Below, piece after piece: positions 4,651 to 23,084 of a DNA stretch of 25,045 nucleotides. The stretch's first letter is position 1. Each line of letters begins with the position of its first letter. Source of the DNA: an uncultured bacterium (lineage in GTDB: Bacteria; AUK180); NCBI GenBank assembly GCA_937863565.1, contig CALMGJ010000037.1, positions 62,001 to 87,045 on the forward strand, in the 5' to 3' direction. Position numbers and translations under genes: made by a program. The notes below the pieces were generated by a model. That model did no database searches, had not been told where the DNA came from, and saw only the letters and a list, made by a program, of their open reading frames with translations.

Positions 4651-4679
4651 TTGATTTTTTTTCTCTTTATACTTAAAAT
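4651..4679 (+). promoter_or_regulatory. Candidate sigma70 promoter for the kinase/regulator/CHAT operon
   Basis: TTGATT (4651-4656), 17-nt spacer, TAAAAT (4674-4679), with an A-rich upstream tract; GGAGG/AAGGA precede the TTG start at 4710. Confidence 0.55.
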
Positions 4680-4709: not shown

Positions 4710-6500
4710 TTGAAGATCAAATACAGGTTCCCCCTGATCATTTTCCCTATCCTTCTCGTTTCACTTCTGTATCTCGGGAATATCTGGTTCTCGCTTACCA
4801 AGACCAACTACGATAATCTTCTAAAGAACGAGGTGAAGATACTGAGCCTGAAGAAAGCCAACGCGATCCAGAATGTGATCGACAAGATGGAAAGCGACCT
4901 TATCCTTCTTTCCACGAGCCCTTGGATCAGGGAATATACCGATATCAAGGGAAGAACGGATGGAGACGAAGATCTCCATATCAAATTCATAACCACATTT
5001 CTAAAAAAGGGAAGGGTCTATAAGGGCTTCACTTTCGCAGATATGAAGGGGGATGAACTTATCAGACTTTATTCTACTCCTGCGCTTCTGCAGAAAAGGA
5101 ACGTTTCGGAAACGGGATATTTCCGGGAAACGGTCAAACTTCCGGAGGGAAGCATACTGAAGTTCTTCTCGGGCAATGATCTTATCTATTCGGCAGGCGT
5201 TTTTTCGAAAGACAACCGTCTCACAGGCATCATTACGCTGGAATTTGATTATGAGGGTTTGAGAGGGCTTGTCAAAGAGCCCAACAGAGAAGCAAGCCCC
5301 GATATCATCCTTTTTGACGGGAAGGGCGGAAAACTGATGGACATCTTTTCCTCGGGAAAGATCACGGAGCATACTTTCGGAAAGATAAAGGATATGATGA
5401 CGGGAACGGACCAGGCGTATCGAGACAGGACGATATTCCTGAAGGGTGAAACGACGGATTTCATCTTTGCCACGTCTCCCGTGACGCATTTTGACTGGCA
5501 TGTGTTCTCCTGCTACAGATATGCCGATTTTGCGTCATCCATCGCCGCTTTGTGGAAAAGAGCGCTGGGTTTTTCGCTCGCGGTCCTCTTGGCCTCGGTG
5601 CTCCTCGTCTACTTCATTTCCCTGAGTGCCGTTGCCCCTATCAGCAGGCTTGCCGCAAATGTCCAGCTTCTCAAGGAAGGAAGCTGGGAAAAGGTGAAAG
5701 GCCCGATCTCGAGGGACGAGATCGGCGATCTCACTATGAAATTCAATGAAATGGCCGATACGATAAAAGAAAAGCAGGACCGTCTGCAGGATGCTTATGA
5801 GAAATTGAGGGAGACGCAGGATAAAATGATACGTACGGAAAAACTCGCCGCTATAGGGGAATTGGCGGCCGGCATAGCGCATGAGATCAATAATCCTCTC
5901 AACAATATTCTCGGGTATGTTTCTCTTTTAAAAAAAAGCACTTCGCTGAATCCAGATGAGTTCAGAAAGCTTGAGATCATACTCCAGCAGATCGACCGGT
6001 GCCTTGCCATCATGGACGGACTTCTTGATTTCTCCCGGGCAAGGACGCTCATACTCGAACAAGCGGATCTTTCGGGCATAATTCAAAATGCCGCCGAAGA
6101 AGCGAGAGTGGAATTCTCGATGAAAGAAGAGAATTTTGAAATATCCCTGGAAAAAGAGATGACCGCCTATATCGACAGGGAGAAGATCAGAAGGGTTTTC
6201 TTCAATATTATAAAGAATGCCTGTGAAGCGGTTGCCTTCAAAGGTACGATCAGCATCAGCGCCCGGAAGGAGAACGGTTCGATCACAATAATGATCAGGG
6301 ATAACGGCGAGGGTATCCCGCCCGAGAACATCGAAAAGATATTCATGCCGTTCTTCTCGACAAGAACAGAGCAAAAAGGGACCGGATTAGGCCTTTCGCT
6401 CAGTCGCGGGATCATCGAGGACCATGGAGGGGAGATAAAGGTGTCAAGCAGAAAGGGGGAGACCATTTTTGAAGTAAAACTACCGCAGGGGGCAGCATGA
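4710..6500 (+). CDS. Membrane sensor histidine kinase (2 TM, periplasmic Cache-like, HAMP, HisKA, HATPase_c)
   Basis: Two TM helices flank a ~250-aa extracytoplasmic domain. HAMP (SRDEIGDLTMKFNEM), H-box (LAAGIAHEINNPL), N-box (FFNIIKNACEA), G1/F/G2 (DNGEGIP, IFMPFFST, GTGLGL). TTG start. Confidence 0.95.
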   Translation: MKIKYRFPLIIFPILLVSLLYLGNIWFSLTKTNYDNLLKNEVKILSLKKANAIQNVIDKMESDLILLSTSPWIREYTDIKGRTDGDEDLHIKFITTFLKKGRVYKGFTFADMKGDELIRLYSTPALLQKRNVSETGYFRETVKLPEGSILKFFSGNDLIYSAGVFSKDNRLTGIITLEFDYEGLRGLVKEPNREASPDIILFDGKGGKLMDIFSSGKITEHTFGKIKDMMTGTDQAYRDRTIFLKGETTDFIFATSPVTHFDWHVFSCYRYADFASSIAALWKRALGFSLAVLLASVLLVYFISLSAVAPISRLAANVQLLKEGSWEKVKGPISRDEIGDLTMKFNEMADTIKEKQDRLQDAYEKLRETQDKMIRTEKLAAIGELAAGIAHEINNPLNNILGYVSLLKKSTSLNPDEFRKLEIILQQIDRCLAIMDGLLDFSRARTLILEQADLSGIIQNAAEEARVEFSMKEENFEISLEKEMTAYIDREKIRRVFFNIIKNACEAVAFKGTISISARKENGSITIMIRDNGEGIPPENIEKIFMPFFSTRTEQKGTGLGLSLSRGIIEDHGGEIKVSSRKGETIFEVKLPQGAA

Positions 6501-7912
6501 TGGCCGGAAGGAAAATGAACATTCTGATCGTTGACGATGAAATGCATACGGTCGATATCATAGCGGAGACATTAGCGGGATGCGATCTTGGAATATTCAA
6601 GGCTTACGATAAGAACGGAGCACTGAAGGCCATCGCGTCCTCCGATATCGACATAGTCGTGACCGATCTGAAACTTAAGAACGAATCCGGGATCGAAGTC
6701 GTGGAAACCCTGAAAAAAAGATATCCATCGTCGCTGGCGATCGTCATCACCGCATATGCCACGGTGGATTCCGCGGTCGAAGCGATGAAGAAGGGGGCTT
6801 ACGATTACATAACCAAACCCTTCCGTCCGGAGTATGTGAAAATGATCATCGAGCGCGCACTCGAGAATATAAGGCTTTCAAAGAAGATCAAGGACCTTGA
6901 GCTCATCATCGGGCAGCATGAACAGTTCTCCGGTATAATAGGAAGATCGGCGGTGATGAAAGAAGTATTCGAACAGATCGATCTTGCAGCGAGCACAGAT
7001 TCGAATGTTCTCATTTTCGGGGAAAGCGGAACGGGAAAGGAATTGGCGGCAAAAGCGATACACAAAAAAAGCGCAAGGAGCACAAAGCCCTTCATCGTCA
7101 AGGATTGCGGAATAGGGACGAGAGAACTCCTTGCATCAGAACTCTTCGGTTATGTTAAGGGCGCATTTACGGGCGCAAATGAAACAAAAAAAGGACTTTT
7201 CGAACTCGCTGAGCAGGGCACTCTGTTTCTCGATGAGATATCAACACTTGATGTCGATCTTCAATCCCATCTTCTTAGGGCCATACAGGAACGGGAGATC
7301 CGCCCGGTCGGTGCAGGGCATTTTAAAAAGATAGACGTAAGATTCATCGCGGCTACGAACAAGGACCTTTCCGTTCTTATCGGGGGAGGCTCATTCAGGC
7401 AGGACCTTTATTTCAGGATAAACGTGATCAATATAAATCTGCCGCCATTACGCGCTCGCCGTGACGATATACCCCTTCTTCTGGATTATTTCGTCAATAA
7501 ATATTCCCATGCGCTCGGGAAAAAAGTAGAGAGGACAGAAAAAGAAGTACTTGATATCTTCATGAGATATCCTTGGCCGGGAAATGTCAGAGAACTTGAG
7601 AATGCTGTGGAAAGGGCGGTCCTTTTCATGAAGGAAGGGATATTGACCGCTAAATGCATACCTGAGGCGATACTCAGGCCTGATCCCGAAGCCTCGCTCA
7701 TGCCAAATGAGGGCAATTCTTCGAAAGGGATCTTGAAAAACCTCTATGAGGTCGAAAAGGAGCATATCCTCGACACTTTGAAGAAATGCGGCGGAAATCA
7801 GAAGAGATGTTCAGAAGTTCTGGGGATCAGCAGAAAAACACTTTGGGAAAAATTAAAAAAATATGGCATAAAAAGTGTAAAGAATTTTGAGGCCGAAGGA
7901 GGTCCGCAATGA
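6497..7912 (+). CDS. Sigma54-dependent response regulator (NtrC/AtoC family: REC-AAA+-Fis HTH)
   Basis: REC (ILIVDDE, VVTDLKL, YITKPF), Walker A GESGTGKE, intact GAFTGA, Walker B LFLDEI, FRQDLYFRIN, WPGNVREL, C-terminal LGISRKTLWEKLKKYG. ATGA overlap with the kinase stop. Confidence 0.96.
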   Translation: MMAGRKMNILIVDDEMHTVDIIAETLAGCDLGIFKAYDKNGALKAIASSDIDIVVTDLKLKNESGIEVVETLKKRYPSSLAIVITAYATVDSAVEAMKKGAYDYITKPFRPEYVKMIIERALENIRLSKKIKDLELIIGQHEQFSGIIGRSAVMKEVFEQIDLAASTDSNVLIFGESGTGKELAAKAIHKKSARSTKPFIVKDCGIGTRELLASELFGYVKGAFTGANETKKGLFELAEQGTLFLDEISTLDVDLQSHLLRAIQEREIRPVGAGHFKKIDVRFIAATNKDLSVLIGGGSFRQDLYFRINVININLPPLRARRDDIPLLLDYFVNKYSHALGKKVERTEKEVLDIFMRYPWPGNVRELENAVERAVLFMKEGILTAKCIPEAILRPDPEASLMPNEGNSSKGILKNLYEVEKEHILDTLKKCGGNQKRCSEVLGISRKTLWEKLKKYGIKSVKNFEAEGGPQ

Positions 7913-10900
7913 AAAGAGCGCTTTCCACATTATTCGTTATCATTTTCGTTATATGCTGTTACGGCAATACCGACGACATCGTTTTCAAGGACGGCATTCT
8001 TTTCTACGATGTTAATATGAGGGGAGAGACCTACGAATTCGTAGTGAAGATCGAATCCCTGGAACCGGAGATCGTCTTCAGATGGGTCATGCCTTCCAAG
8101 GACCTTGCCGCCCGGGCGATCATTTCCAAAGAGAATATACTGAACGCAAAAAACCAGAAAACATATTTCTCCAATTATGATTATGAAAGATACGGGAAAG
8201 GAACAACGGCCGTATGGCTTTCTAAGATGAACTATCTTGCGCTGAAATTGATGAAATTCACAAAGATCACTTTTGATTCGGGGAGTGCCGAGAAACTTAA
8301 ACTCACAGGTTCTAAAACAGTCCCCGTTACCGTTAACGGGGAGCCCGTAGATATCGGCCTTATAACGGCAAAAAGCGAATCCGGGAAATATCTGGAGGTC
8401 CTTGACGACATAGAACATCCCGTTATCATGAACATGGAACTCGATTGGGGAACGGTCAAGATCAACAGGATATTCCATAAAACAGCCCTTATTGAACATA
8501 TAGGATCGCTTTATGATTCGGGAGATCCGGGAAGTATTAAAAGCGCCATCTACTTCACCGCATATTTCGATCTCCCCGAATTTGCAGACAAGGTCATCGC
8601 TGCCATCGATAAAGAAGATACGAGGGTGGATGCCATGTGGGCATGCGGAAGGCTCAAGCTCAAACAGGCTCTTCCGAAGGTCCTGCCCTATATGGATTCG
8701 AACGATTATAACACTTATTATTATGCGGTATTCGCAACAAGGATGATCAAAGACCCTTCTTCCATTCCGCAATTACTGAAGGTCCTGAAGAAGGAAAAGG
8801 ACCTTACTTCTTCAAAGGCAGAGACCATCATTTATGCTCTCGGAGATTTCAAGGATCCCCGTCCCGTAAAAGATATATGTGCAATTCTTGACAAAGAGAC
8901 ATCGCGGCTGAGCGCCCTGAAACCCGAAGAAGAAGATAAAAATGTCAATTTCAGGTGGACATGCCTGGACAGCCTTCTTCAACTTGCATCTCCCGCTTCG
9001 GTAAAAACACTGAAAGCCCTTCAGCTCGTGGAAAAGGATAAAACAAATCTTTCCCTGATAATCTCAGCGCTGGATAAGATCGAGTTCTCAAATATCAAAA
9101 CACCCGCAGTGAAAAAGGAGAAGAAGGCGAAACCGGGTCAAGAGGCTCCGAAGCCCGGTAAATCCGTCTGGTTCTACGCTAAGGTGAAGGATTTCTACGA
9201 AGACAATAAGATCGTGGTCCTGGGAAGAGGCAGCAATGATATGGTGCGTGAGGATTCCGGGGAAGTGTATTTCTACCATAATGCAATCTCCGGGACCAGT
9301 TCAAATATCAACTGGTCATTCGTTATTGCCAAGGGGAGGATCATAAAGGTCACTCCTGATGATACGGTGATCCATATCACGGACATGTATGATAAGATCG
9401 CCAGCGGAGATATTGCCGAGTTCACTCTTGTGATGCCTGTTGAGAAGGTCGATAATCCGCTTCTGCTTCTGGCTCTCTACGACATTACTTTTAAATCCCC
9501 GTCTGACGACAGACCCTACAATTCCGTCGATGCCGTAAAGAACATTTCCGACGCAAGTTATAATGAATTATTGAAGATGATCGAGAAGGAACTAAAGGAT
9601 TACATCAATACAGAGGATATCAAATCCTACACTTCCTCCCTTACCGTCGATGAAGGGAAATTCAAAGGGATGAACTGGTACGATGCGGGCATGGCCGTTA
9701 CAACGGAAGATATAAGGGAATTTTTTCTTTATGTTAAATACTATCCTTCGAGGTATCTCACCAACGAATATAATTTTGCGGAGACCCTTTATACATGGAT
9801 CATAAATGGTGCAGAGGACACGCTGAACGAACAACGGGCGGATCAGGCTAAACCGGTTTACAATGACGCGCTCGATCTTCTCTCAGAGGGAAAGATCGAC
9901 GAGTCCGCGGAGAGATTGAGAAAAGTGCTCGAGATCAAGCCGGATCATGAGGACGCGAAAAATAAACTTACATTGATAGAAGACATCGCTTATCTCAGGG
10001 AAGTGACATCCCGCGATCCCGATGACCTCAATTCTCTCTATGACCTTGCATACAAATACTGGCGCGCAGGCTTATATGAAATATCCAATGAAAAGTACAC
10101 GATCTGCGTGGAAAAAAAATTCAAGGAGGGCGCCTCAAGGTTCAATATCGGCCGGAATTATTTCGATATGGGTGATACGAAGAAAGCATTCGAGATCTAC
10201 AGTTCCCTTGGCGGCACTTATGAGAAGGAAACTGAGGAAAAATGGATTAAATACACATCTTCCCTCCTCAAGCTCTCCACAGAGAAGAACGATCCGCAGG
10301 CCTTCATCAATATCGCGGACGTTTTTTATCACGATGAGGTCTACGCGGACGCGAAGGATTATTATCAGAAGGCATTATCAGCCGATCCTGATAATAAGTA
10401 TGCCAAGGAAATGATAGGGAAGATCAAGATCCACAATGATGTGGACCAGTATCTCCTCTGGGCTGCCGATTACTGGGACGAATTCAAGTTCGAGGATGCC
10501 AAAACGTACTGGATCGAAGCCCTTTCCGCAGCTATGGAACTGAACGACAAGGAGCTGATGCTGACAATATACAATAAGATCGCGAAAAGTTACGAGAATG
10601 CCGAGATGTACGATGAAGCAATTGAGATATACGGAAGGATAATCGAATTTGACAATACGAATTTCGATGGCTATTTCGGGATCGCTTACGCGTACCAGGG
10701 GCTTCTCGAATACGGAAAAGCGATGGAATGGACTGAGAAAGCGCTCCAAAAATTCCCGGATGACGTAAGTTTTTTGAACAGCATCGGCTTCGATCTGATG
10801 AAATTAGGGCGTTTCGATGAAGCGGTCCCGTATCTTGAACGGGCAAAAAAAGACGATCCGCAATACCTAAATCCGCGCAAGAACCTGGCTGTTTGCCTTT

Positions 10901-13900
10901 TCGAGAAGGACCTCGATGCTTCTGTCCAAATACTCAAGGATGCGCTTTCGGAAGTGGACAATAATGATTACGAAACGCGGAAAAAACTCGGGGAACTCGT
11001 TCTTCTAAAGGATCTCAAGGACAAAAAGAGCACATCCCCCGATGAAAAGATCATCCTGGCCAAAATATATTATGATTTTATGCGGTATGATGCCGGGCTC
11101 TCCGTGCTCGCCGCAGTTCCGCAGAATTTCGAACGGTACCGCGATGTGCTTTATGAAATGGGTAGGATTTATTATCAGAAGAACGATTACGGGAAAGCTT
11201 TGGAGTATTTCGAAAAACAAAAGAAGATCTATCCCAACCCTAATGCTGATAATTTCATCAGCTACTGCAAGGGCTATATGGAAAAGGACCGCGAGAAAAG
11301 GGCCATGCATTTCGGCCGCGGTGAAATGGCCATCTCATCCTACTACTCCGCCCTTCTTAATTTCGCGAGAATAGAAACGAAGATACCCGGATTGGATAAG
11401 CTCATAGAGACCGCCAAGATCGGCTATAAGGCTGCAAAGGATATGGATTGGGCCTATGAGTGGACTCAGAAATACAATTACGGTGAGGCGGTTAAATATC
11501 TGAAAGAAGCGGAGAAGCTGGCATTTTCGATAAATGACATGTACATGCTCGTGGATATCTGCTATAAAACCGCTAATGGTTATCTTGATCTCGGGCAATA
11601 CGATCTTGCCTGGGAATACTACAATGCCGCCGTGAAATACCGGAAAGCAGTGAACGCGGACGATAAGGATACCGTATTGGACCAGTGTTTTAAATATTAT
11701 TATACGTCGATCGGAGATTTCAACAAGGCGCTTGAATACGCCGAAAAGAACCTCAAAAGAGTTCAGAGGGATTTCCTGTACAATGACCTCGGGATCACAC
11801 ATGCTGACCTTGCCGATTGTTATACGAATATGGGAGACTACGAGAATGCCCTCGAACATTACAATGCCGCGCTCGAGGTCTACAAGAATAATCTCAATTC
11901 CTTAAGCGAAGTGTATCAGAGGAAGAACATCATCTACATATATCTCTATCAGCAGGAATTCGATAAGGCGCTCGAGGATATCCCCGCTCTGGAGAAGGCT
12001 TTCATCAAGATCGAGAAGAATGCCGTAACGGCGCAGGATATCTACAATATTCTCGGGCAGACATACCAGTACATCGGAGTCGCCGATAAGGCCATCGTTT
12101 ATTTCGATAAGGGATATGCCACCGCTTCACGCTTGGGGAATAATTACGGCCGCGGAGCTTTCCTGAACAATTCTTCCGAGGTCTTTCTCTATATAACGGG
12201 CGACCTCGACAAGGCTGCCGAGAGGCTTCTTAAGGCCCAGGTGATCTTCGAGAACATGAACGTGCCGTCAGGTCTTGCGCCCGTTTATTCGAATCTGGCA
12301 GACCTTTATTTCAAGAAAAAGGAATACGATAAAGCGATCGAATATGCGGAGAAAGCGAAGACCATCGCCATCGACTACAATTACGGCTACGAGTACAATG
12401 CCGCTTTGCATCTTGAGGCATCGGTGGAATTCGAGAAAGGGAATACGGATAAGGCCTTCGAGTACTGCGCCGAACTCCTCGACCGCGTCGAAGGGAGGAA
12501 AAGAGGCGCTTTTCTCTGGAAGGGAAGGTATCTGATGGGGAGGATACTCTACGGTCAGAATAAAAAGGAAGAAGCTGTGCAGAAACTTGAATCGGCTGTC
12601 GAGGCTTTAAGAAAAACGACTCAATCGATGAAATCAGAAGAAGGACAGCGTTCTTTCCTTAAAGCGGAGAATAAATTCGAAGTATATGAGAAGCTCATTT
12701 CCATTCTCATGGAACTGAAGCGCTACGACGAATCGATCAAATATCTCGAGGAGATAAAGTCCCGTATTATAATGGATACTTTCGAGAACTACAACAAGGA
12801 ACTCCAGCAGCTCAAAGAGAAGAAATCCTCCATAGAGGAAGAACTCCAGAAAGAACTGGAAAAGCCAAAGGAGATGCAGAGCAAAGACAGGATAAAATAC
12901 CTCTCGGAGAACCTTGCGAAGAATGAGAGCGAATTCAACCGGCTTGTTACATCCATCGAGGACAATTATGATGATTTTGCCAAATTGAGAGTGGATCCTG
13001 ACCTTCTGGCGGATATGAAGGACAATATCCCGAAGGACAGCGTGATACTGTTCTATTTTTTCGCGGACGAGAAACTTTTCATAATGACGGTCGGGAACAA
13101 TTATTTCAATGCTCAATCCGTGGCCATAAAAGCCGAGGAACTCGAAGAGAAAGTATTGAAGCTCAGAGCCTTCATCACGATGCCCGGAGAAGAAAAGAAC
13201 ACGAATGAGACACTGGCGGAGCTTTATGATATCCTGATCCGGCCGATCGAACCGACGACCGATAAATACGAGACACTGATCATTCTCCCGTATAATGTCC
13301 TTTTCTATGTTCCCTTTGCCGCGCTGGTCAGCGAAAATACGCCCGGTGCGGTCAAGTACCTCATTGACGACAAGAACGTGACCACGCTGTGCAATGCCAC
13401 GCTGAACGACCTTTTCAATACTCCTAAAAAGAGCAGCGAGTATTCTTTCGTCGGTTTCGGGAATCCCGACGGAAGCCTGGCCTATTCCGAGAAAGAACTC
13501 GAGGATATCAGAAATACCGTATTTACGGACGGGAAGATATTCCTTAAGGACGATGCGACAAAGGAGAATTTCTTCGAGGAAGCAAAGAACTATTCGATAC
13601 TCCATATCTCAACACACGGGAAGCTCAAACCGGTAGCTTCCGATTCCTATCTTCTCCTTGCGGGAACGGAGGAAGAGTCCAAACTGACGCTGGAAGAGAT
13701 CACCGGATACACCGACCTTAAAGGGAAAGCCGTTCTCGCAGTGCTCTCTGCATGCGAAACCGCGCTTGAAAAGAATAAATCCATCGGGAAGGATTTCCTC
13801 AGTCTCTCAAAGGCTTTTGCCAGAGCGGGTGTTCCGGCCATCATCGCATCGCTATGGAAGGTATCGGACGAATCCACAGAGCTTATTTTCACCGAGTTCT

Positions 13901-14034
13901 ATAAGAATCTCAAGACGAAGAACATGAACAAAGCCGAAGCCCTGCGCGCCGCCCAGAAGTCGATAAAGAGCATGAAAGAGTTCTCGAGCCCGTTCTTCTG
14001 GGCTCCGTACATACTCAATGGCGACTACAGGTAA
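7909..14034 (+). CDS. Large secreted HEAT/TPR-repeat CHAT-domain (caspase-like, clan CD) protease, 2041 aa
   Basis: N-terminal signal-like peptide, HEAT-like repeats (AMWACGRLK, IIYALGDFKDPRPV), many TPRs and a coiled coil. CHAT domain: LYDILIRPI, LIILPYNVLFYVPFAALV, FGNPDGSL, catalytic HISTHG (13603-13620) and VLSACET (Cys codon 13753-13755), ASLWKVSD, SPFFWAPY. ATGA overlap with the regulator stop. Confidence 0.93.
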   Translation: MKRALSTLFVIIFVICCYGNTDDIVFKDGILFYDVNMRGETYEFVVKIESLEPEIVFRWVMPSKDLAARAIISKENILNAKNQKTYFSNYDYERYGKGTTAVWLSKMNYLALKLMKFTKITFDSGSAEKLKLTGSKTVPVTVNGEPVDIGLITAKSESGKYLEVLDDIEHPVIMNMELDWGTVKINRIFHKTALIEHIGSLYDSGDPGSIKSAIYFTAYFDLPEFADKVIAAIDKEDTRVDAMWACGRLKLKQALPKVLPYMDSNDYNTYYYAVFATRMIKDPSSIPQLLKVLKKEKDLTSSKAETIIYALGDFKDPRPVKDICAILDKETSRLSALKPEEEDKNVNFRWTCLDSLLQLASPASVKTLKALQLVEKDKTNLSLIISALDKIEFSNIKTPAVKKEKKAKPGQEAPKPGKSVWFYAKVKDFYEDNKIVVLGRGSNDMVREDSGEVYFYHNAISGTSSNINWSFVIAKGRIIKVTPDDTVIHITDMYDKIASGDIAEFTLVMPVEKVDNPLLLLALYDITFKSPSDDRPYNSVDAVKNISDASYNELLKMIEKELKDYINTEDIKSYTSSLTVDEGKFKGMNWYDAGMAVTTEDIREFFLYVKYYPSRYLTNEYNFAETLYTWIINGAEDTLNEQRADQAKPVYNDALDLLSEGKIDESAERLRKVLEIKPDHEDAKNKLTLIEDIAYLREVTSRDPDDLNSLYDLAYKYWRAGLYEISNEKYTICVEKKFKEGASRFNIGRNYFDMGDTKKAFEIYSSLGGTYEKETEEKWIKYTSSLLKLSTEKNDPQAFINIADVFYHDEVYADAKDYYQKALSADPDNKYAKEMIGKIKIHNDVDQYLLWAADYWDEFKFEDAKTYWIEALSAAMELNDKELMLTIYNKIAKSYENAEMYDEAIEIYGRIIEFDNTNFDGYFGIAYAYQGLLEYGKAMEWTEKALQKFPDDVSFLNSIGFDLMKLGRFDEAVPYLERAKKDDPQYLNPRKNLAVCLFEKDLDASVQILKDALSEVDNNDYETRKKLGELVLLKDLKDKKSTSPDEKIILAKIYYDFMRYDAGLSVLAAVPQNFERYRDVLYEMGRIYYQKNDYGKALEYFEKQKKIYPNPNADNFISYCKGYMEKDREKRAMHFGRGEMAISSYYSALLNFARIETKIPGLDKLIETAKIGYKAAKDMDWAYEWTQKYNYGEAVKYLKEAEKLAFSINDMYMLVDICYKTANGYLDLGQYDLAWEYYNAAVKYRKAVNADDKDTVLDQCFKYYYTSIGDFNKALEYAEKNLKRVQRDFLYNDLGITHADLADCYTNMGDYENALEHYNAALEVYKNNLNSLSEVYQRKNIIYIYLYQQEFDKALEDIPALEKAFIKIEKNAVTAQDIYNILGQTYQYIGVADKAIVYFDKGYATASRLGNNYGRGAFLNNSSEVFLYITGDLDKAAERLLKAQVIFENMNVPSGLAPVYSNLADLYFKKKEYDKAIEYAEKAKTIAIDYNYGYEYNAALHLEASVEFEKGNTDKAFEYCAELLDRVEGRKRGAFLWKGRYLMGRILYGQNKKEEAVQKLESAVEALRKTTQSMKSEEGQRSFLKAENKFEVYEKLISILMELKRYDESIKYLEEIKSRIIMDTFENYNKELQQLKEKKSSIEEELQKELEKPKEMQSKDRIKYLSENLAKNESEFNRLVTSIEDNYDDFAKLRVDPDLLADMKDNIPKDSVILFYFFADEKLFIMTVGNNYFNAQSVAIKAEELEEKVLKLRAFITMPGEEKNTNETLAELYDILIRPIEPTTDKYETLIILPYNVLFYVPFAALVSENTPGAVKYLIDDKNVTTLCNATLNDLFNTPKKSSEYSFVGFGNPDGSLAYSEKELEDIRNTVFTDGKIFLKDDATKENFFEEAKNYSILHISTHGKLKPVASDSYLLLAGTEEESKLTLEEITGYTDLKGKAVLAVLSACETALEKNKSIGKDFLSLSKAFARAGVPAIIASLWKVSDESTELIFTEFYKNLKTKNMNKAEALRAAQKSIKSMKEFSSPFFWAPYILNGDYR

Positions 14035-14046
14035 AAAGGTAATGGG

Positions 14047-14063
14047 TGTTACTATTCGAAACA
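14047..14063 (+). promoter_or_regulatory. Candidate upstream activator sequence for a sigma54 enhancer-binding protein
   Basis: Near-palindrome TGTTAC-TATTC-GAAACA (TGT-N11-ACA), about 65-80 nt upstream of the -24 element. Confidence 0.5.
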
Positions 14064-14125
14064 TTGAAAAAAAGTTTGAAATATGGGATAATAGTCCGGA
14101 TGCGATGAATAAAGGAATTCGGAAA

Positions 14126-14142
14126 TTGGTACACATTATGCT
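14126..14142 (+). promoter_or_regulatory. Candidate sigma54 (-24/-12) promoter
   Basis: TTGGTACACATTATGCT: GG (14128-29), 10 nt, GC (14140-41); compare consensus TGGCACG-N4-TTGCW. It lies about 45 nt upstream of the AGGAGG-preceded ATG. Confidence 0.65.
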
Positions 14143-14184
14143 TTACAATGAACAGAAATACTTTTTATTTCAGGAGGTGTGCTC

Positions 14185-14895
14185 ATGAAAAAGGCACTAT
14201 GCGTTTTGCTGGCAGTGTTCCTTTTAGCGGGAACATTCTATGCGAAGCCGAAAAAGAAAGAGGGCCCTAAGGAAGAGCCCAAGATCCAGGCTCAGAAGGG
14301 AGAGTTCCTCAGAACCAAGGATATACAGGGTTCACTCGATCCCAGTCTTGCTTTTTTGGCTGACATGGGCCTCAAGATAGATGAAGCAAGAGAAAAAAGC
14401 GATGCTATCGAGATCGCTTCGTGCGCGCTTCTTCTTTTCTGGGCCGAGAAGATCTCAGGCAAGGAATCCCCGATCATAACGGGAAAGACTTTGCTTGAAG
14501 AGGCTTCGAAACTTGCCGAAACACAAAAGAACCCCAAAGCTCTGGAAGCAGTTGCCAAGATCTGGGGCGATGCTGTGAACGGCCCCGGCGACACGGCCAT
14601 GATGGAAAAATATACAGAGATGGCCAAAGTCTTCCTCGCCGAAAAGAAGGATGTGAAAAGGTCCTATTCCGAAACAGGCTCGGTGCAGGTCAACAATAAT
14701 ACCGGATGGGATATGTATATCTACATTGACGGGTATTATCAGGGCGTTCTCTATGCCTATCAGGACAAAGTCTACTATGGCGTTCCCGCCGGTTCGATCA
14801 AGCTCTATGCTTCGGCTGCCGACGGCACGTATTGGGGACCCAATTACTACACGCTTTCCGTAGGCGGAAAGTTCACCTGGAATCTCTGGCCGTAA
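14185..14895 (+). CDS. Secreted hypothetical protein: helical N-domain plus C-terminal aromatic-rich beta (PEGA-like) domain
   Basis: AGGAGG at 14172-14177 favours ATG 14185 over the track start at 14179. Signal peptide MKKALCVLLAVFLLAGTFYA; C-terminal VQVNNNTGWDMYIYIDGYYQG...VPAGSIKLYA...YWGP...FTWNLWP. Confidence 0.85.
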   Translation: MKKALCVLLAVFLLAGTFYAKPKKKEGPKEEPKIQAQKGEFLRTKDIQGSLDPSLAFLADMGLKIDEAREKSDAIEIASCALLLFWAEKISGKESPIITGKTLLEEASKLAETQKNPKALEAVAKIWGDAVNGPGDTAMMEKYTEMAKVFLAEKKDVKRSYSETGSVQVNNNTGWDMYIYIDGYYQGVLYAYQDKVYYGVPAGSIKLYASAADGTYWGPNYYTLSVGGKFTWNLWP

Positions 14896-14917
14896 TTTCG
14901 GGTAATCGTTAATTCTA

Positions 14918-14971
14918 GGGGGAGGCGTTCGCACCTCTAAAAAGGCGTACGCGTCTCCCCCGTTCTTTTTT
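14918..14971 (+). terminator. Probable intrinsic terminator/attenuator
   Basis: GGGGGAGGCG...CGTCTCCCCC stem (one G-U pair) followed by GTTCTTTTTT, 22 nt after the stop at 14895. Confidence 0.7.
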
Positions 14972-14997
14972 CAGTAAAGAACTCTATGAGGGAAAAT

Positions 14998-16320
14998 ATG
15001 AAGATCGTCACAAAGGTCCTTCTGGGCTTGCTTGTTTTCGTGTTATCCGCGGTTATTCTCGTTCTCATCGTCTCGGCCGCGGTCAATGCCGGACAGAAGA
15101 AGATATACAATGCCGTTCAAACCGCATCCGTTAAAGCATACGAGGATTTCGGAGAGTATGTCAAAAAACCTTTTTATGAAACATACGCTGACGGGCAGTC
15201 CTGGGATTATTACGGAAAAGCGGTCGATCTTATTAAAACGGACATTGATAAGAACGGCAATAAAGAGATATTCAGGGATTATGCCGAAGATAAAGGGACC
15301 GTGACCCGTGAGCAAGTGCTCGAAGCCCTCAAGTCCGAAGAAGAGCCTCTTCATATTTTCCGTGAAGGAGTGTATAAGAACAAGTGCCTGATACCTGTTG
15401 ATTACAGGGACTTCGCCGGCACTTTTTTCCCTAATGTATATTCGGTTTTCTTCCTGTCAAATGCAAGCGGTTCCCGTTATCTTATTGAACTCGAGGATAA
15501 AAAATACAGCGAAGCTCTCCGTTCAGCTATGGAGAACATTATCTTTTCCATTGACCTGATGAATTCAAGTCCGAACCTGATGCTCTATATCGGAGGGGTA
15601 CATAATCTGAAGAAAACAGTCAAACATCTGAACAAGTTCATCGCCGAAAAGAGGAAGGATCTAAGATCGATAGAGACCGTTATCAAGGCCTATGAGACCC
15701 TTAGAGGGGAATTCAAGGACATAATGGAGCTTATTGATTATGAAAGGCATCTCATAAAGATAAATCTGAGCGATCTTTTCTATGAGCAATTGTTCAATTC
15801 TCCGCGCGCGTCCGTAGGTTCTTTTAAAAAACTGCTGGTAAAATTATATCTTGCCAAATACGGTTTTTCGGAGTATAAAGCGATCAATAACACACTGGAT
15901 CTTTTCGACAGGATATACGATAATATAATAAAAGCCGAACCGAGAACGTGGAAAGGCCTTACGGGGGTTTTCGGAGAGAACGACCGCCTTATTTTCAATT
16001 CGAAAAACGATATAGCCAATATCGTATATCCAAAATATGACAGCATCGTATTCGAATACTTTGCACTGCGGACAGAAATAGACATGCAGCTTCTGAAACT
16101 GTATCTGATCCGCGCCCTTTCCGAGGGAAAAACGGCAGAAAAGGCCGTCGAGAACGTAAAAACCCGGATAGGGGAATTTAAAGATTTTTACAGCGGTGAG
16201 AATATCCGTATTGAAAATGACGCCCGGAAGAGGGTCATATCGCTTGTTTCTTTCGGCCCCGACGGGGTGACGGACGCGGCCGCTCCGGGAGATGATATTA
16301 AAATGGAGATTGAATATTAG
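14998..16320 (+). CDS. Membrane-anchored hypothetical protein with GspG-like C-terminal motif
   Basis: Single N-terminal TM helix and a mostly helical body, ending in DFYSGE...LVSFGPDG...DDI. GAGGG RBS favours ATG 14998 (track start 14986). Confidence 0.8.
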   Translation: MKIVTKVLLGLLVFVLSAVILVLIVSAAVNAGQKKIYNAVQTASVKAYEDFGEYVKKPFYETYADGQSWDYYGKAVDLIKTDIDKNGNKEIFRDYAEDKGTVTREQVLEALKSEEEPLHIFREGVYKNKCLIPVDYRDFAGTFFPNVYSVFFLSNASGSRYLIELEDKKYSEALRSAMENIIFSIDLMNSSPNLMLYIGGVHNLKKTVKHLNKFIAEKRKDLRSIETVIKAYETLRGEFKDIMELIDYERHLIKINLSDLFYEQLFNSPRASVGSFKKLLVKLYLAKYGFSEYKAINNTLDLFDRIYDNIIKAEPRTWKGLTGVFGENDRLIFNSKNDIANIVYPKYDSIVFEYFALRTEIDMQLLKLYLIRALSEGKTAEKAVENVKTRIGEFKDFYSGENIRIENDARKRVISLVSFGPDGVTDAAAPGDDIKMEIEY

Positions 16321-16328
16321 GAGAGCTT

Positions 16329-17261
16329 ATGAAAAAGAATATTCTTCTGTTCTTACTGCTTTTTATCGTGTGCGTTAACGTTCATTCCGCCGATACCGGT
16401 ACTGTCGCGATAGTATCTTCGATCGACGGTCAGGCATCGCTGAAAAGCGGCGATACCGAAAAACCTCTGGACCTGGGTGCGGAATTAAAGGATGGCGATA
16501 CCGTTATCATCGGAAAGAAATCCTCTCTGACGGTGCTTTTCCAGAATGGCGCTCTTATGATCTACAATAAGGAAGGCGTGCATTCCATTTCCGTAAAAGA
16601 TGCCGATAAGAGGGCCAAGACCCGGGGGATCATACCTGAAGTAGTGAAGGATTTCAACAATACTTTCAATGAGGAACAAAGAGAGGAAACGCTGGGAAAG
16701 GTACTGTCATTAAGGCCAATAGAGGATTTCATGCTCATTTATCCGAGGATGAAGGTGTTCTCGGTGAGGCCAAGGTTCCTCTGGGACGTTTCTCAGGAGA
16801 TCCATGAGAGAGCATTCATAATAGTTATCGGGGAAGTGGGCGGAAGGGAACTGCTCCGAATACCCGTTAGCGACATTTGCGAAATGGACTACCCTTCCTT
16901 CGCGCCGCCCCTCACAAGAGGCAATATCTACTACTGGAGGATCGAACTTGTTTCCGGCGACGATTATTCGGATGATATGTCATTCACCGTCGTTGACGAG
17001 AATGAAGCCTCGAACTACACCGTAGAGATCGACAGGATAAATAAAAACTACAAGGACCAGAATGTGAAAGACATGCTGATAGGCAAACTTCTCACCGGGA
17101 ATTCACTCTATACCGAAGCGATCGAGTATTACAATAAACTTGCCGCCCGTAATCCTAATTCGATCTATCCGCATCAGGAACTTGCCATCATATATCAGAA
17201 CACATATCTGAAGAAACTGTACGATTCCGAAATGCTGAAGATCAAGGAATTGAAAAAATAA
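16329..17261 (+). CDS. Secreted protein, FecR-like N-terminal beta domain plus DUF928-like/TPR C-terminal region
   Basis: Signal peptide (...NVHS-A). FecR-like VSSIDGQASLK...LKDGDTVIIGKKSSLTVLFQNG; then RPRFLW, YPSFAPPLTRGNIYYWRI, LYTEAIEYYNKLAARNPNS, which recall DUF928-type proteins. RBS AGGAG. Confidence 0.7.
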   Translation: MKKNILLFLLLFIVCVNVHSADTGTVAIVSSIDGQASLKSGDTEKPLDLGAELKDGDTVIIGKKSSLTVLFQNGALMIYNKEGVHSISVKDADKRAKTRGIIPEVVKDFNNTFNEEQREETLGKVLSLRPIEDFMLIYPRMKVFSVRPRFLWDVSQEIHERAFIIVIGEVGGRELLRIPVSDICEMDYPSFAPPLTRGNIYYWRIELVSGDDYSDDMSFTVVDENEASNYTVEIDRINKNYKDQNVKDMLIGKLLTGNSLYTEAIEYYNKLAARNPNSIYPHQELAIIYQNTYLKKLYDSEMLKIKELKK

Positions 17262-17274
17262 ACGGACGGATACC

Positions 17275-19506
17275 GTGAAAAGGATCCTTCTTCTTGCGGC
17301 TCTTGCAGCGTGTCTTGTGTTTCCGGGTTCATTTAAAGAAACCCTGGAAAAGGCCATTATATCTTTCAATAAAGGCGATTACGGGAAAATGTTCGAGATC
17401 CTGAAAAAGGCATCGAAGGCGCTTGATGTCAAAGATCCCGAATACAAGTACAACAAAGCCGTCCTTTACAAATGGTATGGCAATGCCTATATGGGAATGA
17501 ACGACACTTCTTCGGGTTATACGTATTATGAGGACGCGCTCTCACTACTGGAAGAGGTCGGCGGTGACAAGGCGGATCTGGAAAGAGGAAGGCTTTACAA
17601 TAATCTCGGCGCGCTGAACGAAGCGGACGGGGATTATGATTCGGCATTGGATTATTTTGATAAGGCATGCGGAATTTATGAAAAGCTGAACGAAACACTG
17701 GAGATCATGCACACAGAGCTCAATAAGGCGTACCTTTTCGAGGGAATGGGAGAGTACGATCGCGCTCTTGCCGCGCTCGAGGGCATCATTGCCGCCTCGG
17801 CCGACAAAGCGGTGAAGGATGACGATATCCTTTCAAAGGCCTATCTCGCCGAAGGCAATGTCTGTTTTAAACTGAAGAAGTACAATGAAGCGCTTCAGCA
17901 TTATATCAAATCCAATATCCATTTTGCCAAGCTTAAATCGAAAATAGGCATAGCGATGACCTTCGCCAATCTCGGCATAACCAATGAAAAACTCGGCGCG
18001 CTGGGATTGGCAAAAGATTTCTACATAAAAGCCCTTGAGAATTCGGAGAAGATAAGGGGGCAGCTGAGGGACCAGAAGATGCGCGCTACGTTCGGAGAGG
18101 GAAGTTTCTTCGTCTATGAAAAGATCATCACGCTTTGTGTGAACGAAGGAGCCGCGGAAGATGCCCTCTACTATATTGAAAGAGCAAAGGCGCGCGCTTT
18201 TCTCGATATGCTCGGAAATAAGATGATACCCCTCAGGACCAAGAATAGGGAGTTCGCAGAGCTTCTGGACAGAGAAAGGGAATATGCCCTTAAGATCGAA
18301 TCGTCGGTAGAGATCGGCGAGATCGAAAAATTGTCCGAAGAGCTGGACGGGATCTATGAAAAGATCAAAGCCATCGATCCGGAATATGCCGGGCTGAAGA
18401 CGGCTGATGTGAAAAATGCCGCGGAACTCCGTGCCCGCATTCCCGATGATATGATATTCGTGGATTATTTTATCGGTGAATACGGCGCCTATGCCGCACT
18501 TTTCTCCGGAAATCTTCTGAAAGTGATCACTATCCCGATGCGGCCAGCTGTAATGATCGAAAGGATATTGAAATTCAGGTCGATAGCGGTAGAACCCGGA
18601 TGGAGCATTTTCGATTCAAGCTATCAGGATATACTTGCCGAACTTTACGATGTGCTGTTAAAACCTTTGGAAAAAGAGATCAGCGCATTCGGCAAGATCT
18701 GCGTCATTCCACACGGGATCCTTCATCATCTTCCTTTCAATGCACTCGTTTACGAGAAAGATACGGCAAGCAGCGGATTAAAAAAGCCGAAGTTCGCCAT
18801 AGAAAAATATCCGTTCATTTTTTCACCGTCGATCAACATTTTCGTAGAAACATTCAAAGAAGAACAGTCGTACGGAAACATATTAATAATAGGCAATGCC
18901 CAATATGAAGAAGGCTGGGCCGCTCTTCCTAATGCAGAATTGGAAGCTGCCGCGATAGAAAAAAAATTCACCGAAAAGAAAGTCCTTATCGGGAAGAAGG
19001 CGCTTGAAACTACAGTGAAAAAAGAAGCGCCGAATTATAACATACTGCATTTTGCCACTCACGGCCAACTTCTGAGCGAAGAACCGCTGAATTCGAGGAT
19101 CTTACTTACCAAGGGCGGTCGCGACGACGGCAGTCTTACCGTCAAGGAGATATTCAATATGGACCTCAAGGCTTCACTGGTCGTTCTTTCCGCGTGTGAA
19201 ACAGCAAAACTGGGCAGTTTCTCATCGGATACGAAAGAGAATTTTCCTTACGGGGACGATCTTCTCGGCCTTACCAGAGCCTTTGTTTATGCCGGTGTTC
19301 CTTCGATCGTCGCAAGTCTCTGGGAGGTTTCAGACGCGGCCACGATGTTCATCATGGACAATTTCTACGATAATCTGAAAACGATGGATAAAGTAGAGGC
19401 CCTTAGGCAGGCCCAGATACGGTTAATGAAATCGGAAGAAGGGAAAGGCGTGAACAGGATGGTCCACCCCAATTACTGGGCGCCTTTCATCATGTTCGGT
19501 TACTGA
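17275..19506 (+). CDS. Secreted TPR-CHAT domain protease, 743 aa
   Basis: GTG start, signal-like peptide, TPRs (LYNNLGAL, TFANLGI), ERAKARAFLDML. CHAT motifs LYDVLLKPL, VIPHGILHHLPFNAL, catalytic HFATHG (19048-19065) and VLSACET (Cys 19195-19197), GLTRAFVYAG, ASLWEVSD, HPNYWAPF. Confidence 0.94.
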   Translation: MKRILLLAALAACLVFPGSFKETLEKAIISFNKGDYGKMFEILKKASKALDVKDPEYKYNKAVLYKWYGNAYMGMNDTSSGYTYYEDALSLLEEVGGDKADLERGRLYNNLGALNEADGDYDSALDYFDKACGIYEKLNETLEIMHTELNKAYLFEGMGEYDRALAALEGIIAASADKAVKDDDILSKAYLAEGNVCFKLKKYNEALQHYIKSNIHFAKLKSKIGIAMTFANLGITNEKLGALGLAKDFYIKALENSEKIRGQLRDQKMRATFGEGSFFVYEKIITLCVNEGAAEDALYYIERAKARAFLDMLGNKMIPLRTKNREFAELLDREREYALKIESSVEIGEIEKLSEELDGIYEKIKAIDPEYAGLKTADVKNAAELRARIPDDMIFVDYFIGEYGAYAALFSGNLLKVITIPMRPAVMIERILKFRSIAVEPGWSIFDSSYQDILAELYDVLLKPLEKEISAFGKICVIPHGILHHLPFNALVYEKDTASSGLKKPKFAIEKYPFIFSPSINIFVETFKEEQSYGNILIIGNAQYEEGWAALPNAELEAAAIEKKFTEKKVLIGKKALETTVKKEAPNYNILHFATHGQLLSEEPLNSRILLTKGGRDDGSLTVKEIFNMDLKASLVVLSACETAKLGSFSSDTKENFPYGDDLLGLTRAFVYAGVPSIVASLWEVSDAATMFIMDNFYDNLKTMDKVEALRQAQIRLMKSEEGKGVNRMVHPNYWAPFIMFGY

Positions 19507-19527: not shown

Positions 19528-20205
19528 TCAGTCATTCTTTCTGTCATATTTATAATATACGCCGTTCCTTATCATATCGAACAGTGTATCCAAGTCCTTT
19601 ATGAACACCGGCTTCAATGTTATCAGATCGTCCATCTTCTTCTTGCTGTCCACCCCGCCAAAATATTTTAATTTGTACCCTGCAATCAGAGTCGTGACGA
19701 GTTCCAGTACTTCTTCCTTGGGTATGCGCAGGTCCTTTTCGCTCGCATCTTCGAAGATCTTCGCGATGAGGGACCTTGAAATACCTGAGAATTTCCGGTA
19801 GATGTCCCCGAACAGTTTTCCTCTTTTTCCAAGATCCGCGTTTGCAAATATCGTATACAATTCAGGATGGTCGAAGTAGAAATCAAAACTGATGCGCACC
19901 ATCGCTTTGAACCGGTCGATGATATCGGGAGGCATATACCCTGTGCGTTCACCGATATAGTCGCCGTATAGGTTCACGGTATGCTCCAGCACGGCATAGA
20001 GCATAGCTTCTTTGGTGCCGTAATAATAAAAAAGAAGGCCTTTGGATATCTTGAGCTTTTTCGCCACTCTGTTGGTTGAAGCTTTATCGAACCCGTTAAG
20101 CGAGAATTCCTCGATCAGCCCTTCGAATATCTTTTTTTTCAGCAAATCCGTTCTGATCTTCTTTTGTCCGGTCGCCGGCTGATTCTTCCTGCCATTTCCG
20201 GTCAT
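19528..20205 (-). CDS. TetR/AcrR family transcriptional regulator
   Basis: HTH signature EEFSLNGFDKASTNRVAKKLKISKGLLFYYYGTKEAML. Confidence 0.9.
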   Translation of the reverse strand: MTGNGRKNQPATGQKKIRTDLLKKKIFEGLIEEFSLNGFDKASTNRVAKKLKISKGLLFYYYGTKEAMLYAVLEHTVNLYGDYIGERTGYMPPDIIDRFKAMVRISFDFYFDHPELYTIFANADLGKRGKLFGDIYRKFSGISRSLIAKIFEDASEKDLRIPKEEVLELVTTLIAGYKLKYFGGVDSKKKMDDLITLKPVFIKDLDTLFDMIRNGVYYKYDRKND

Positions 20206-20335
20206 TGCAGTGCTCCGGAAGGCTGCTCACAGCATCCTGCATACCGGCATAAAAGTGATCCGGCATTTCTCTTATAAAAGAATGCTCCGCCGCTCATTTA
20301 AAATGCCCTATTGTCATGCGGGTCTTTTTCATGTC

Positions 20336-21541: not shown

Positions 21542-21568
21542 TGCGGCCTCTTCTTTTGGGACAGTTCC

Positions 21569-22786: not shown

Positions 22787-23084
22787 TTGGGTCTGCCCCT
22801 TATGCTCGCTTTCACTTGTGCTGTTTCGCCTCTTCTATAGTGAAGTGTTTCATCGCTTTGCTTCATTATCGAGTTTGTAAGATGAATGCTTCAGAGTTAA
22901 CGGGTTTAAAAAAAGATCATTCATTATTTCTCAACCCGCCGGCAAGCCCCTTGCCAACCCCTTAGCACGTAATAAATGAACTGTTCGATCTGTTTTCTTT
23001 TATTCATCTATCACTTTTTGCTTTCACTGTTCACTGCGGCCTTGCAGTTCATTCCGTACTTCCTACTCCATACAGGGCTTCCGC

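Follow-up and report, generated by a model that had tools for sequence, protein, structure and literature searches.

Most of what is known of bacterial CHAT proteases concerns cytoplasmic enzymes under tight gating, of which craspase and SAVED-CHAT are examples. Craspase and separase are highly specific as well as gated and cytoplasmic, and are controlled by RNA or by securin. To our knowledge, the only characterised periplasmic protein combining a tetratricopeptide repeat (TPR) array with a CHAT domain is DdvA. According to the available part of its report, DdvA is part of a transmembrane anti-sigma factor that gates DdvS, a sigma factor of the extracytoplasmic function (ECF) kind; its catalytic dyad is in a resting state, and it is proposed to cleave itself on an unknown signal, after which RseP releases DdvS (PMC11506125). 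Here we describe a cluster of seven genes in the genome of an uncultured anaerobe (2.27 Mb, 95.5% complete), which encodes a sensor histidine kinase, an NtrC-type response regulator, two TPR-CHAT proteins (CHAT1 and CHAT2) and three further proteins, p238, p444 and p310. The cluster lies in a stretch of 25,045 nt (positions 62,001–87,045 of contig CALMGJ010000037.1, here C37), which was analysed as a whole and is called the window below. A preliminary description of this DNA placed the action of the characterised defence-system CHAT proteases in the cytoplasm, a statement that omits DdvA as a periplasmic TPR-CHAT gating an ECF sigma factor (PMC11506125).

Among characterised systems the cluster comes closest to DdvA, in having a TPR-CHAT His-Cys dyad predicted to lie outside the cytoplasmic membrane and possibly coupled to a transcription factor; the mode of action proposed in the available part of the DdvA report is signal-induced proteolysis. 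In that account DdvA is a single membrane protein, which carries a zinc anti-sigma domain on its cytoplasmic side and is partnered by an ECF sigma factor, whereas the proteins studied here are predicted to be a separate secreted protein and a lipoprotein. Unlike DdvA, the locus has two CHAT proteins together with p310, and the neighbouring regulator is a pair formed by a histidine kinase and a sigma-54 activator. The 14 proteins of the window include no sigma-70/ECF or anti-sigma family detectable by Pfam, and CHAT1 and CHAT2 have only an N-terminal signal sequence. DdvA, as far as the available text describes it, is without a three-helix motif of the active site. The TPR-CHAT architecture is shared with separase and with the craspase protein Csx29 (type III-E, with Cas7-11), and the craspase dyad can be aligned, as described below; the NCBIfam model for Csx29 gives 62.7 bits against a cut-off of 300, and Pfam finds no cas genes in the window.

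We find that the conserved unit is a trio consisting of a large TPR-CHAT protein, p310 and a small TPR-CHAT protein, and not all seven genes. This locus and its two relatives would represent a stand-alone exported form of the TPR-CHAT protease, in which two paralogous proteins are accompanied by a dedicated partner resembling MtxA and DUF928 proteins. In kind this would be a periplasmic TPR-CHAT coupled to membrane signalling; the arrangement itself is undescribed. The preliminary description had not recognised it as a known system, and searches of the full-text literature (supplements aside, with some papers judged by title and the start of the abstract) likewise found no description of it.

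The CHAT proteases and the conserved trio

All seven open reading frames (ORFs) lie on the + strand between positions 4710 and 19506, and their coordinates were confirmed. The ATGA overlaps said to join the kinase, regulator and CHAT1 genes are both present: GCATGATGG at 6497–6500 joins kinase and regulator, and GCAATGAAA at 7909–7912 joins regulator and CHAT1. The p444 and p310 genes are separated by 8 nt, p310 and CHAT2 by 13 nt, and CHAT1 and p238 by 144 nt. CHAT1 and CHAT2 are the only CHAT genes in the whole genome.

CHAT1 (7909–14034, +; 2041 aa) is predicted to consist of a signal peptide, an N-terminal extension with HEAT repeats, a long TPR array and a C-terminal CHAT domain. Pfam finds many TPRs and HEAT_2 in addition to the CHAT domain itself, which occupies residues 1767–2039 (E 1.4e-55, 189.2 bits against the PF12770 cut-off of 24). 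CHAT2 (17275–19506, +; 743 aa) is smaller, with a lipoprotein signal, TPRs that are also found by Pfam, and a CHAT domain at residues 452–742 (E 3e-64, 217.7 bits against the same cut-off of 24). The catalytic residues are H1903 and C1949 in CHAT1 and H596 and C641 in CHAT2. Both dyads align to the His and Cys of the solved craspase TPR-CHAT 8d9g_A (profile search, E 1.8e-6), which we take to be the catalytic residues of craspase, in agreement with the dyad as the DdvA report describes it (PMC11506125), and the two residues are unchanged in all five CHAT domains of the three genomes that have the trio. The same search found the solved craspase TPR-CHATs and, weakly, DdvA. The preliminary description had reported intact His and Cys motifs in both proteases, and this holds. 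Because the CHAT scores are far above the cut-off, the dyad is constant in five of five domains and it aligns with that of craspase, both proteins are apparently active caspase-fold proteases.

By manual criteria, all five proteins encoded downstream of the regulator have export-type N-termini, in line with the signal peptides or anchor previously assigned to the last four of them. In CHAT1, p238 and p310 a short basic start is followed by a hydrophobic core and a cleavage-type site of small residues, and CHAT2 has the lipobox LAAC at residues 10–13. The N-terminus of p444 is taken to be a membrane anchor, since its hydrophobic stretch of about 30 residues is too long for a cleaved signal. The chief support for the predicted extracytoplasmic location is that export signals are kept in the orthologs described next: all seven orthologs with complete N-termini have them, with lipoboxes LVGC and LSGC in the large CHAT proteins and signal peptides in the p310-like and small CHAT proteins. 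Export and protease activity are both properties that we infer from sequence.

The phylum was sampled with nine species genomes, including that of the cluster and two others, G007 and G008. CHAT proteins occur in these three of the nine, each time only within the trio, and in none of the six genomes from the window's own family. In G007 a single contig of 10.3 kb encodes, all in one direction, a secreted TPR protein of 676 aa, a TPR-CHAT protein of 1678 aa, a p310 ortholog of 305 aa whose gene overlaps that of the large CHAT protein by 4 nt, and a small TPR-CHAT protein, cut short by the contig end and at least 702 aa long. G008 has the equivalent gene set divided between two contig ends. In both genomes the CHAT2 ortholog is encoded immediately 3' of the p310 ortholog. 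Residues 405–2041 of CHAT1 are 31.6% identical to residues 24–1678 of the G007 ortholog; identities to the orthologs in G007 and G008 are 35% for CHAT2 and 26–31% for p310. Several features are particular to the genome studied here: the first 400 or so residues of CHAT1 (with the HEAT repeats), p238, p444 and the placement of the trio behind a kinase and a regulator. Conservation of the gene neighbourhood is partial. The order CHAT1, p310, CHAT2 is kept in both of the other CHAT-holding genomes, and p238, p444 and the kinase sensor were not found with it.

Searches beyond the phylum sample added little to this group. A profile scan of genome contigs with the p310 alignment gave nothing besides the two relatives already known and a single weak, partial match; scans of metagenomes first gave nothing and, with the CHAT2 alignment, three short or uninformative loci. 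A tblastn search of plasmids with CHAT2 matched 234 records, mainly cyanobacterial. In the six plasmid regions viewed, CHAT genes occur in tandem next to genes for CHASE2 and DUF1822 proteins, and none of the regions has an annotated DUF928. On Tolypothrix plasmids (L029 and L046) and a Nostoc plasmid (L028), two or three tandem CHAT genes adjoin DUF1822 and CHASE2 genes, and one CHASE2 protein among these loci has a weak CHAT match itself.

The two remaining exported proteins are encoded between CHAT1 and p310. For p238 the likelier start is the ATG at 14185, with AGGAGG 9 nt upstream, which gives a protein of 236 aa (14185–14895, +), the length of the database protein. It is predicted to have a signal peptide, a helical part and a C-terminal beta domain resembling PEGA and prealbumin folds, and it appears to be restricted to its lineage: neither Pfam nor NCBIfam has a family for it, the eight other genomes of the phylum encode no relative, and in a large protein collection it matches a single 64%-identical fragment. 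All its matches among ESM Atlas structures fall below a template modelling score (TM) of 0.5 by query. For p444 the likelier start is the ATG at 14998, preceded by GAGGGA, and the product (14998–16320, +) then has 440 aa, again as in the database. Its AlphaFold2 model (predicted local distance difference test score, pLDDT, 85.1; predicted TM, pTM, 0.82) has a helical-repeat domain after the N-terminal anchor, and a small C-terminal beta sheet. It has no Pfam family, and fold searches gave only generic helical-repeat matches under the noise bar for helical proteins and no specific PDB fold. Word-based protein searches with p444 and p310 returned only the window's own proteins. Distant relatives of p444 (15 representatives, 20–33% identity) do occur, and those in the window's own family adjoin DUF2157, GDYXXLXY and DUF3267 genes and not CHAT genes.

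We note that in two genomes of one genus (L006, 13956–18677, and L008, 6347–11812) the p444 relatives lie 3' of these DUF2157, GDYXXLXY and DUF3267 genes. DUF3267 is a putative zincin, and the anchored helical-repeat family therefore has a second context in which a peptidase-like gene is close by.

The preliminary description had taken the co-encoded secreted proteins as substrates of the proteases. For p238 and p444 this fares badly: both are absent from the G007 module, and their relatives in the phylum are either missing or unlinked, so that they appear to be poor candidates for dedicated substrates. On the same comparison p310, which is kept with the proteases, seems the better candidate.

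p310 and its relatives

The p310 protein (16329–17261, +) is predicted to have a signal peptide followed by a beta domain (residues 25–86), a linker modelled with low confidence (92–135), an FN3-like beta sandwich (137–220) and TPR-like helices (224–309). The N-terminal domain resembles the cell-surface anchoring domain 5ix9, both by VIA (Z 11.1 over 75 of 76 residues, root-mean-square deviation (rmsd) 2.9) and by Foldseek (TM 0.82 by target, rmsd 1.4). The middle domain matches FN3-like structures with Z of about 10, FN3 being a common fold. When the PDB was searched by profile with p310, nothing but TPR entries and 5ix9 was returned, the latter at E 0.28.

In the LapA/LapG/LapD system a periplasmic cysteine protease under transmembrane signalling control cuts a linker beside the N-terminal retention-type beta domain of RTX adhesins. 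The N-terminal domain of p310 resembles the LapA-type retention fold only through the match to 5ix9, and the NCBIfam model retention_LapA matches p310 under its cut-off (E 2.3e-4, 21.3 bits against 50). Unlike in the LapA system, Pfam and NCBIfam find no LapG-type (transglutaminase-like) protease and no LapD in the window, and type I secretion genes and a giant adhesin are absent here.

A second resemblance is to DUF928 (PF06051). The orthologs in G007 and G008 score 20.4 and 22.2 bits (E 4.8e-4 and 1.3e-4), both under the cut-off of 26, and a match at E ≤ 0.1 is seen in 4 of 12 members of the p310 family. A six-frame search of the window's own genome with PF06051 gave nothing. The ESM Atlas holds full-length twins of p310 (TM 0.72–0.83, 308–329 aa), some of them in clusters with DUF928; they come from Bacteroidota, Krumholzibacteriota, Fervidibacterota, Gemmatimonadota and Methylomirabilota, with looser ones from Cyanobacteriota. 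Between predicted models, p310 matches a cluster with 26% DUF928 members at TM 0.76, and one with 95% DUF928 members at TM 0.48 by query and 0.59 by the matched entry.

The closest described protein is MtxA of Magnetospirillum gryphiswaldense, which according to the available part of its report has 313 aa, in which a signal peptide is followed by a beta region, a linker sensitive to trypsin, an Ig-like domain and TPR; it is encoded in an operon with signal-transduction genes, its deletion gave no phenotype, and its function is unknown (PMC4439547). p310 is like MtxA, so described, in length, in domain order and in being encoded with signal-transduction genes; it differs in its protease neighbours, none being reported for MtxA in the same part of that text. 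The two are also linked by a TM of 0.60 between p310 and an Atlas cluster of the MtxA family. DUF7354, a family listed with MtxA, matches 2 of 12 p310 relatives, under its cut-off, and Pfam gives no match of p310 to the MtxA families PF22433, PF22121 and PF24045; MtxA is not among the PDB matches listed. Judging from the models, we describe p310 as MtxA/DUF928-like and file it in neither family.

In the linker (window positions 16602–16733) the residues RAK 95–97, F113, R118, L122 and SLR 127–129 are constant in the three orthologs, and 7 of 12 family members have a [SGPA]-L-R motif immediately ahead of the FN3-like domain. The motif is a candidate cleavage or docking site.

The wider distribution of p310 was analysed with a hidden Markov model (HMM) of the three orthologs, which was compared with 401 genomes, mostly one per family across the bacteria. 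It matched in 73 genomes, in most cases only over the N-terminal 80–150 positions, a beta domain of a generic kind. Matches that cover 200 or more of the 305 positions were found in the three trio genomes and in nine genes at eight loci of eight unrelated genomes. At all eight loci the neighbours were named by Pfam and hydropathy. Three (in G379, G069 and G332) have an adenylate/guanylate cyclase with a CHASE2 domain directly upstream of the p310-like gene, and in G332 a Peptidase_C14 caspase (E 5.6e-13) is encoded directly downstream. At two more (G230 and G362) the adjoining gene encodes a Ser/Thr kinase that has one transmembrane helix and external TPRs. G067 has a 790-aa protein that belongs to no family and a giant FG-GAP protein as neighbours, and G282 has MreC. 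In G381 the p310-like gene is followed by that of a TPR protein with a signal peptide, of at least 766 aa, which runs off the contig end. This protein was considered as a CHAT protease and rejected; the contig stops short of any CHAT domain, and G381 has its CHAT matches on a different contig.

A membrane sensor thus adjoins the p310-like gene at five of the eight loci, which supports the view that p310-type proteins are periplasmic companions of transmembrane sensors. A general link between p310 and CHAT proteins outside the phylum is not supported. Caspase and CHASE2 domains also meet in the EACC2-caspase-CHASE2 proteins, in which, according to the available part of the report, the caspase belongs to a constant N-terminal module and the C-terminal part is variable and possibly extracellular, as with CHASE2 (PMC8195603); that arrangement differs from the present cluster. 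Should the partner indeed connect proteases with sensors, it would offer a way to approach both the cues of CHASE2-type and similar orphan sensors and the role of MtxA-like proteins.

In one unrelated genome, 6 kb from a p310-like gene and a transmembrane Ser/Thr kinase, a fusion protein of at least 1305 aa is encoded (L083, 2–3919), which combines a STAND-type NTPase, TPR, GAF, a sigma-54 AAA+ domain and HTH_8.

Control of the cluster and competing explanations

The sensor histidine kinase (4710–6500, +; 596 aa) has hydrophobic segments at residues 3–30 and 281–316, predicted to be transmembrane helices on either side of a periplasmic domain, followed by a HAMP-like region and by HisKA (E 6.8e-19) and HATPase_c (E 3.1e-26). 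The phospho-accepting His of the H-box is H391. The periplasmic domain matches dCache_1 with 36.9 bits, under the curated cut-off of 45, and is named Cache-like only; HAMP is matched with 22.6 bits, under the cut-off of 25. Of the "Cache kinase" in the preliminary description, then, the histidine kinase stands, and the Cache assignment is reduced to a likeness. The regulator (6497–7912, +; 471 aa) has Response_reg, Sigma54_activat (E 7e-64) and HTH_8 (E 1.3e-15) domains, with D57, a Walker A motif at 175 and GAFTGA at 222–227; its best NCBIfam models are AtoC/ZraR-like, under the equivalog cut-offs. All the hallmarks of an NtrC-type two-component system are present (HisKA, HATPase_c and His in the kinase; receiver Asp, AAA+ GAFTGA and helix-turn-helix in the regulator). 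The genome has one rpoN gene and ten strong genes for sigma-54 activators.

Candidate transcription signals were found at three places. Upstream of the kinase gene a sigma-70-like promoter candidate, TTGATT-17 nt-TAAAAT (4651–4679, +), agrees with the consensus at 9 of 12 positions and is a pattern match only; there is no sigma-54-like site in this spacer. The spacer between CHAT1 and p238 holds the sigma-54-like -24/-12 element TGGTACACATTATGCT (14127–14142, +), with the correct GG-N10-GC spacing, 42 nt 5' of the ATG at 14185. The + strand of the window has no other sigma-54-like site. Of 174 such sites in the whole genome, 31 lie entirely between genes, compared with 6.1% intergenic DNA by crude gene calls, an enrichment of about 3-fold. 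A near-twin, TGGTACATAAAATGCT, lies on contig C31 of the same genome (83817–83832, +), 27 nt 5' of an ORF at 83859–84233. Another sigma-54 activator gene, at 84779–85279, is near this twin. After p238 comes a hairpin like that of an intrinsic terminator (14918–14971, +), with an 11-bp G+C-rich stem followed by the U-run GUUCUUUUUU; its folding energy of -28.3 kcal/mol (z -3.82) was reached by none of 200 shuffles. In the 25 or so nt between the hairpin and p444, no promoter-like site is visible.

The site 5' of p238 and the terminator after it suggest that the regulator drives the distal genes. Control of the module by the regulator fits a sigma-54-like site inside the cluster better than feedback from the module to the kinase would, and is the likeliest direction on the sequence evidence. 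The explanation that we prefer, with a confidence that stops a little short of an even chance, is that the trio is a regulated extracytoplasmic proteolysis module, which is here under the control of a Cache-type kinase and an NtrC-type regulator. The TPR arrays would gate both proteases, and p310 would be their dedicated partner, either as an adaptor or as a substrate cut in its linker. Kinase, regulator and CHAT1 would be made from one message, probably from a sigma-70-type promoter such as the candidate at 4651–4679. The phosphorylated regulator would most likely activate a sigma-54 promoter in the CHAT1/p238 spacer, giving a strong and largely terminated p238 transcript with attenuated read-through to p444, p310 and CHAT2, and the two-component system would in this way set the amount of the module that is made. 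Since relatives of p310 are usually encoded beside membrane sensors, p310 may also touch the periplasmic domain of the kinase. The sigma-54 promoter, all protein contacts and all substrates in this scheme are what we infer. The cluster is compact and its parts are of known types (kinase, sigma-54 regulator and candidate promoter), and it could be rebuilt in a laboratory host.

A number of observations weigh against this explanation. The organism is uncultured and the sensor link has been seen once: the association of kinase and sigma-54 regulator with the trio is known from one genome, and no counterpart of the kinase sensor domain turned up in the eight other genomes of the phylum, of which G007 and G008 are 80% and 72% complete and have contigs that end near the module, so that a sensor nearby is neither shown nor excluded there. 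The G007 module lies instead 3' of the secreted TPR gene, which has an AT-rich, sigma-70-like upstream region, and its contig has no sigma-54-like site. In the window, TGGTACACATTATGCT has two mismatches to the consensus and no ortholog to compare it with, and by count it is not significant, as two sigma-54-like sites were found where 6.5 are expected by chance; a sigma-70-like candidate with an extended -10 element (TTGAAA-17 nt-TG-GATAAT, 14064–14092, +; consensus scan 10 of 12) competes with it from 35 nt upstream. As to p310, its AlphaFold2 model is mediocre (pLDDT 63.6), its DUF928 score of 15.5 bits (E 0.015) falls short of the cut-off, and a caspase-fold protease is encoded next door at only one of the eight loci outside the phylum; p310-like genes there are not beside CHAT genes, which in the five genomes checked are on other contigs. 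Finally, export was judged by eye only, from hydropathy, N-termini of the n-h-c type and the lipobox motif.

The most serious competitor, unlikely as we consider it, is that the genes are neighbours without a shared function, such that the two-component system controls only p238 or genes elsewhere and the trio is an independent envelope module, placed around it by chance in this single genome. The trio does occur in G007 without p238, p444 or a visible sensor, p444 relatives are found in other contexts, and p238, with promoter candidates and a terminator of its own, looks like an inserted transcription unit. However, the ATGA overlap between the regulator stop and the CHAT1 start argues for co-translation and not for mere adjacency, and beyond the terminator no separate promoter is visible for p444, p310 and CHAT2.

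A closed loop, as put forward in the preliminary description, strikes us as quite improbable. In it the CHAT proteases would cut p238, p444 and p310, perhaps as a two-step cascade, and a product would be the ligand of the Cache kinase, which signals to the sigma-54 regulator. Such a loop would make use of the Cache-like periplasmic domain of the kinase and of the predicted location of all candidate substrates in one compartment; the membrane sensors beside p310 relatives at five of eight unrelated loci fit an action of p310, or a fragment of it, on a sensor, and its low-confidence linker (92–135) has residues constant in three orthologs. Against this, p238 and p444 are outside the conserved module, conservation of the trio does not extend to the kinase sensor and the dCache_1 match is under its cut-off.

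Very doubtful in our view is a DdvA-like sensor for conflict or defence, in which the exported TPR-CHAT proteins would detect a foreign protein, from a phage or competitor, in the periplasm and trigger a transcriptional response through the kinase and sigma-54 in place of an anti-sigma/ECF sigma pair. DdvA, as presented in the available text, provides the precedent of a periplasmic TPR-CHAT able to gate transcription (PMC11506125), and the patchy occurrence of the module, in three of nine genomes of the phylum, is often seen with defence genes. The seven proteins gave no defence-specific match in PADLOC, however, Pfam finds no effector or other defence gene in the window, and neither CHAT1 nor CHAT2 has a transmembrane anti-sigma part.

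More speculatively, the TPR/HEAT array of CHAT1 might capture an extracellular protein cue, whereupon CHAT1 and CHAT2, in sequence or as a heterodimer, would cut the p310 linker, and the freed p310 fragment would be the ligand of the Cache kinase and, elsewhere, of CHASE2 cyclases and TPR Ser/Thr kinases. We regard this as a long shot; were it true, a class of orphan bacterial sensors would read protein ligands made by proteases, much as eukaryotic protease cascades feed receptors.

Least probable of all is that the CHAT proteins are general extracellular or periplasmic peptidases or scaffolds of envelope or matrix assembly, with p238 as a surface or matrix protein made in abundance and signalling playing no part: the C-terminal domain of p238 (its PEGA/prealbumin-like fold, common in surface proteins, is matched at TM < 0.5), the strong terminator after p238, which suggests high expression, and a periplasmic alpha-2-macroglobulin gene 1.1 kb away would suit it, but long TPR/HEAT arrays (more than 1,000 residues in CHAT1) with a dedicated partner are typical of gated, specific proteases such as separase, craspase and DdvA, and p238 is not conserved with the trio.

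The alpha-2-macroglobulin gene (bMG3, MG2, bMG5, bMG6 and A2M_BRD domains) occupies positions 1–3585 of the window on the opposite (-) strand and continues beyond its edge; the product is a periplasmic protease trap, and an EamA transporter gene lies between it and the cluster. In relatives without the cluster, the orthologs of the flanking EamA and TetR genes are on different contigs. On the other side, positions 19528–24287 (-) hold a gene for a TetR-family regulator and then three tandem genes for FtsX/MacB_PCD permeases, with the palindrome TGGCAAGGGGCTTGCC at 22941–22956 between the second and third of the tandem genes. These are followed at 24368–24727 (-) by a gene of the 23S rRNA-intervening-sequence protein family (PF05635, E 2e-29).

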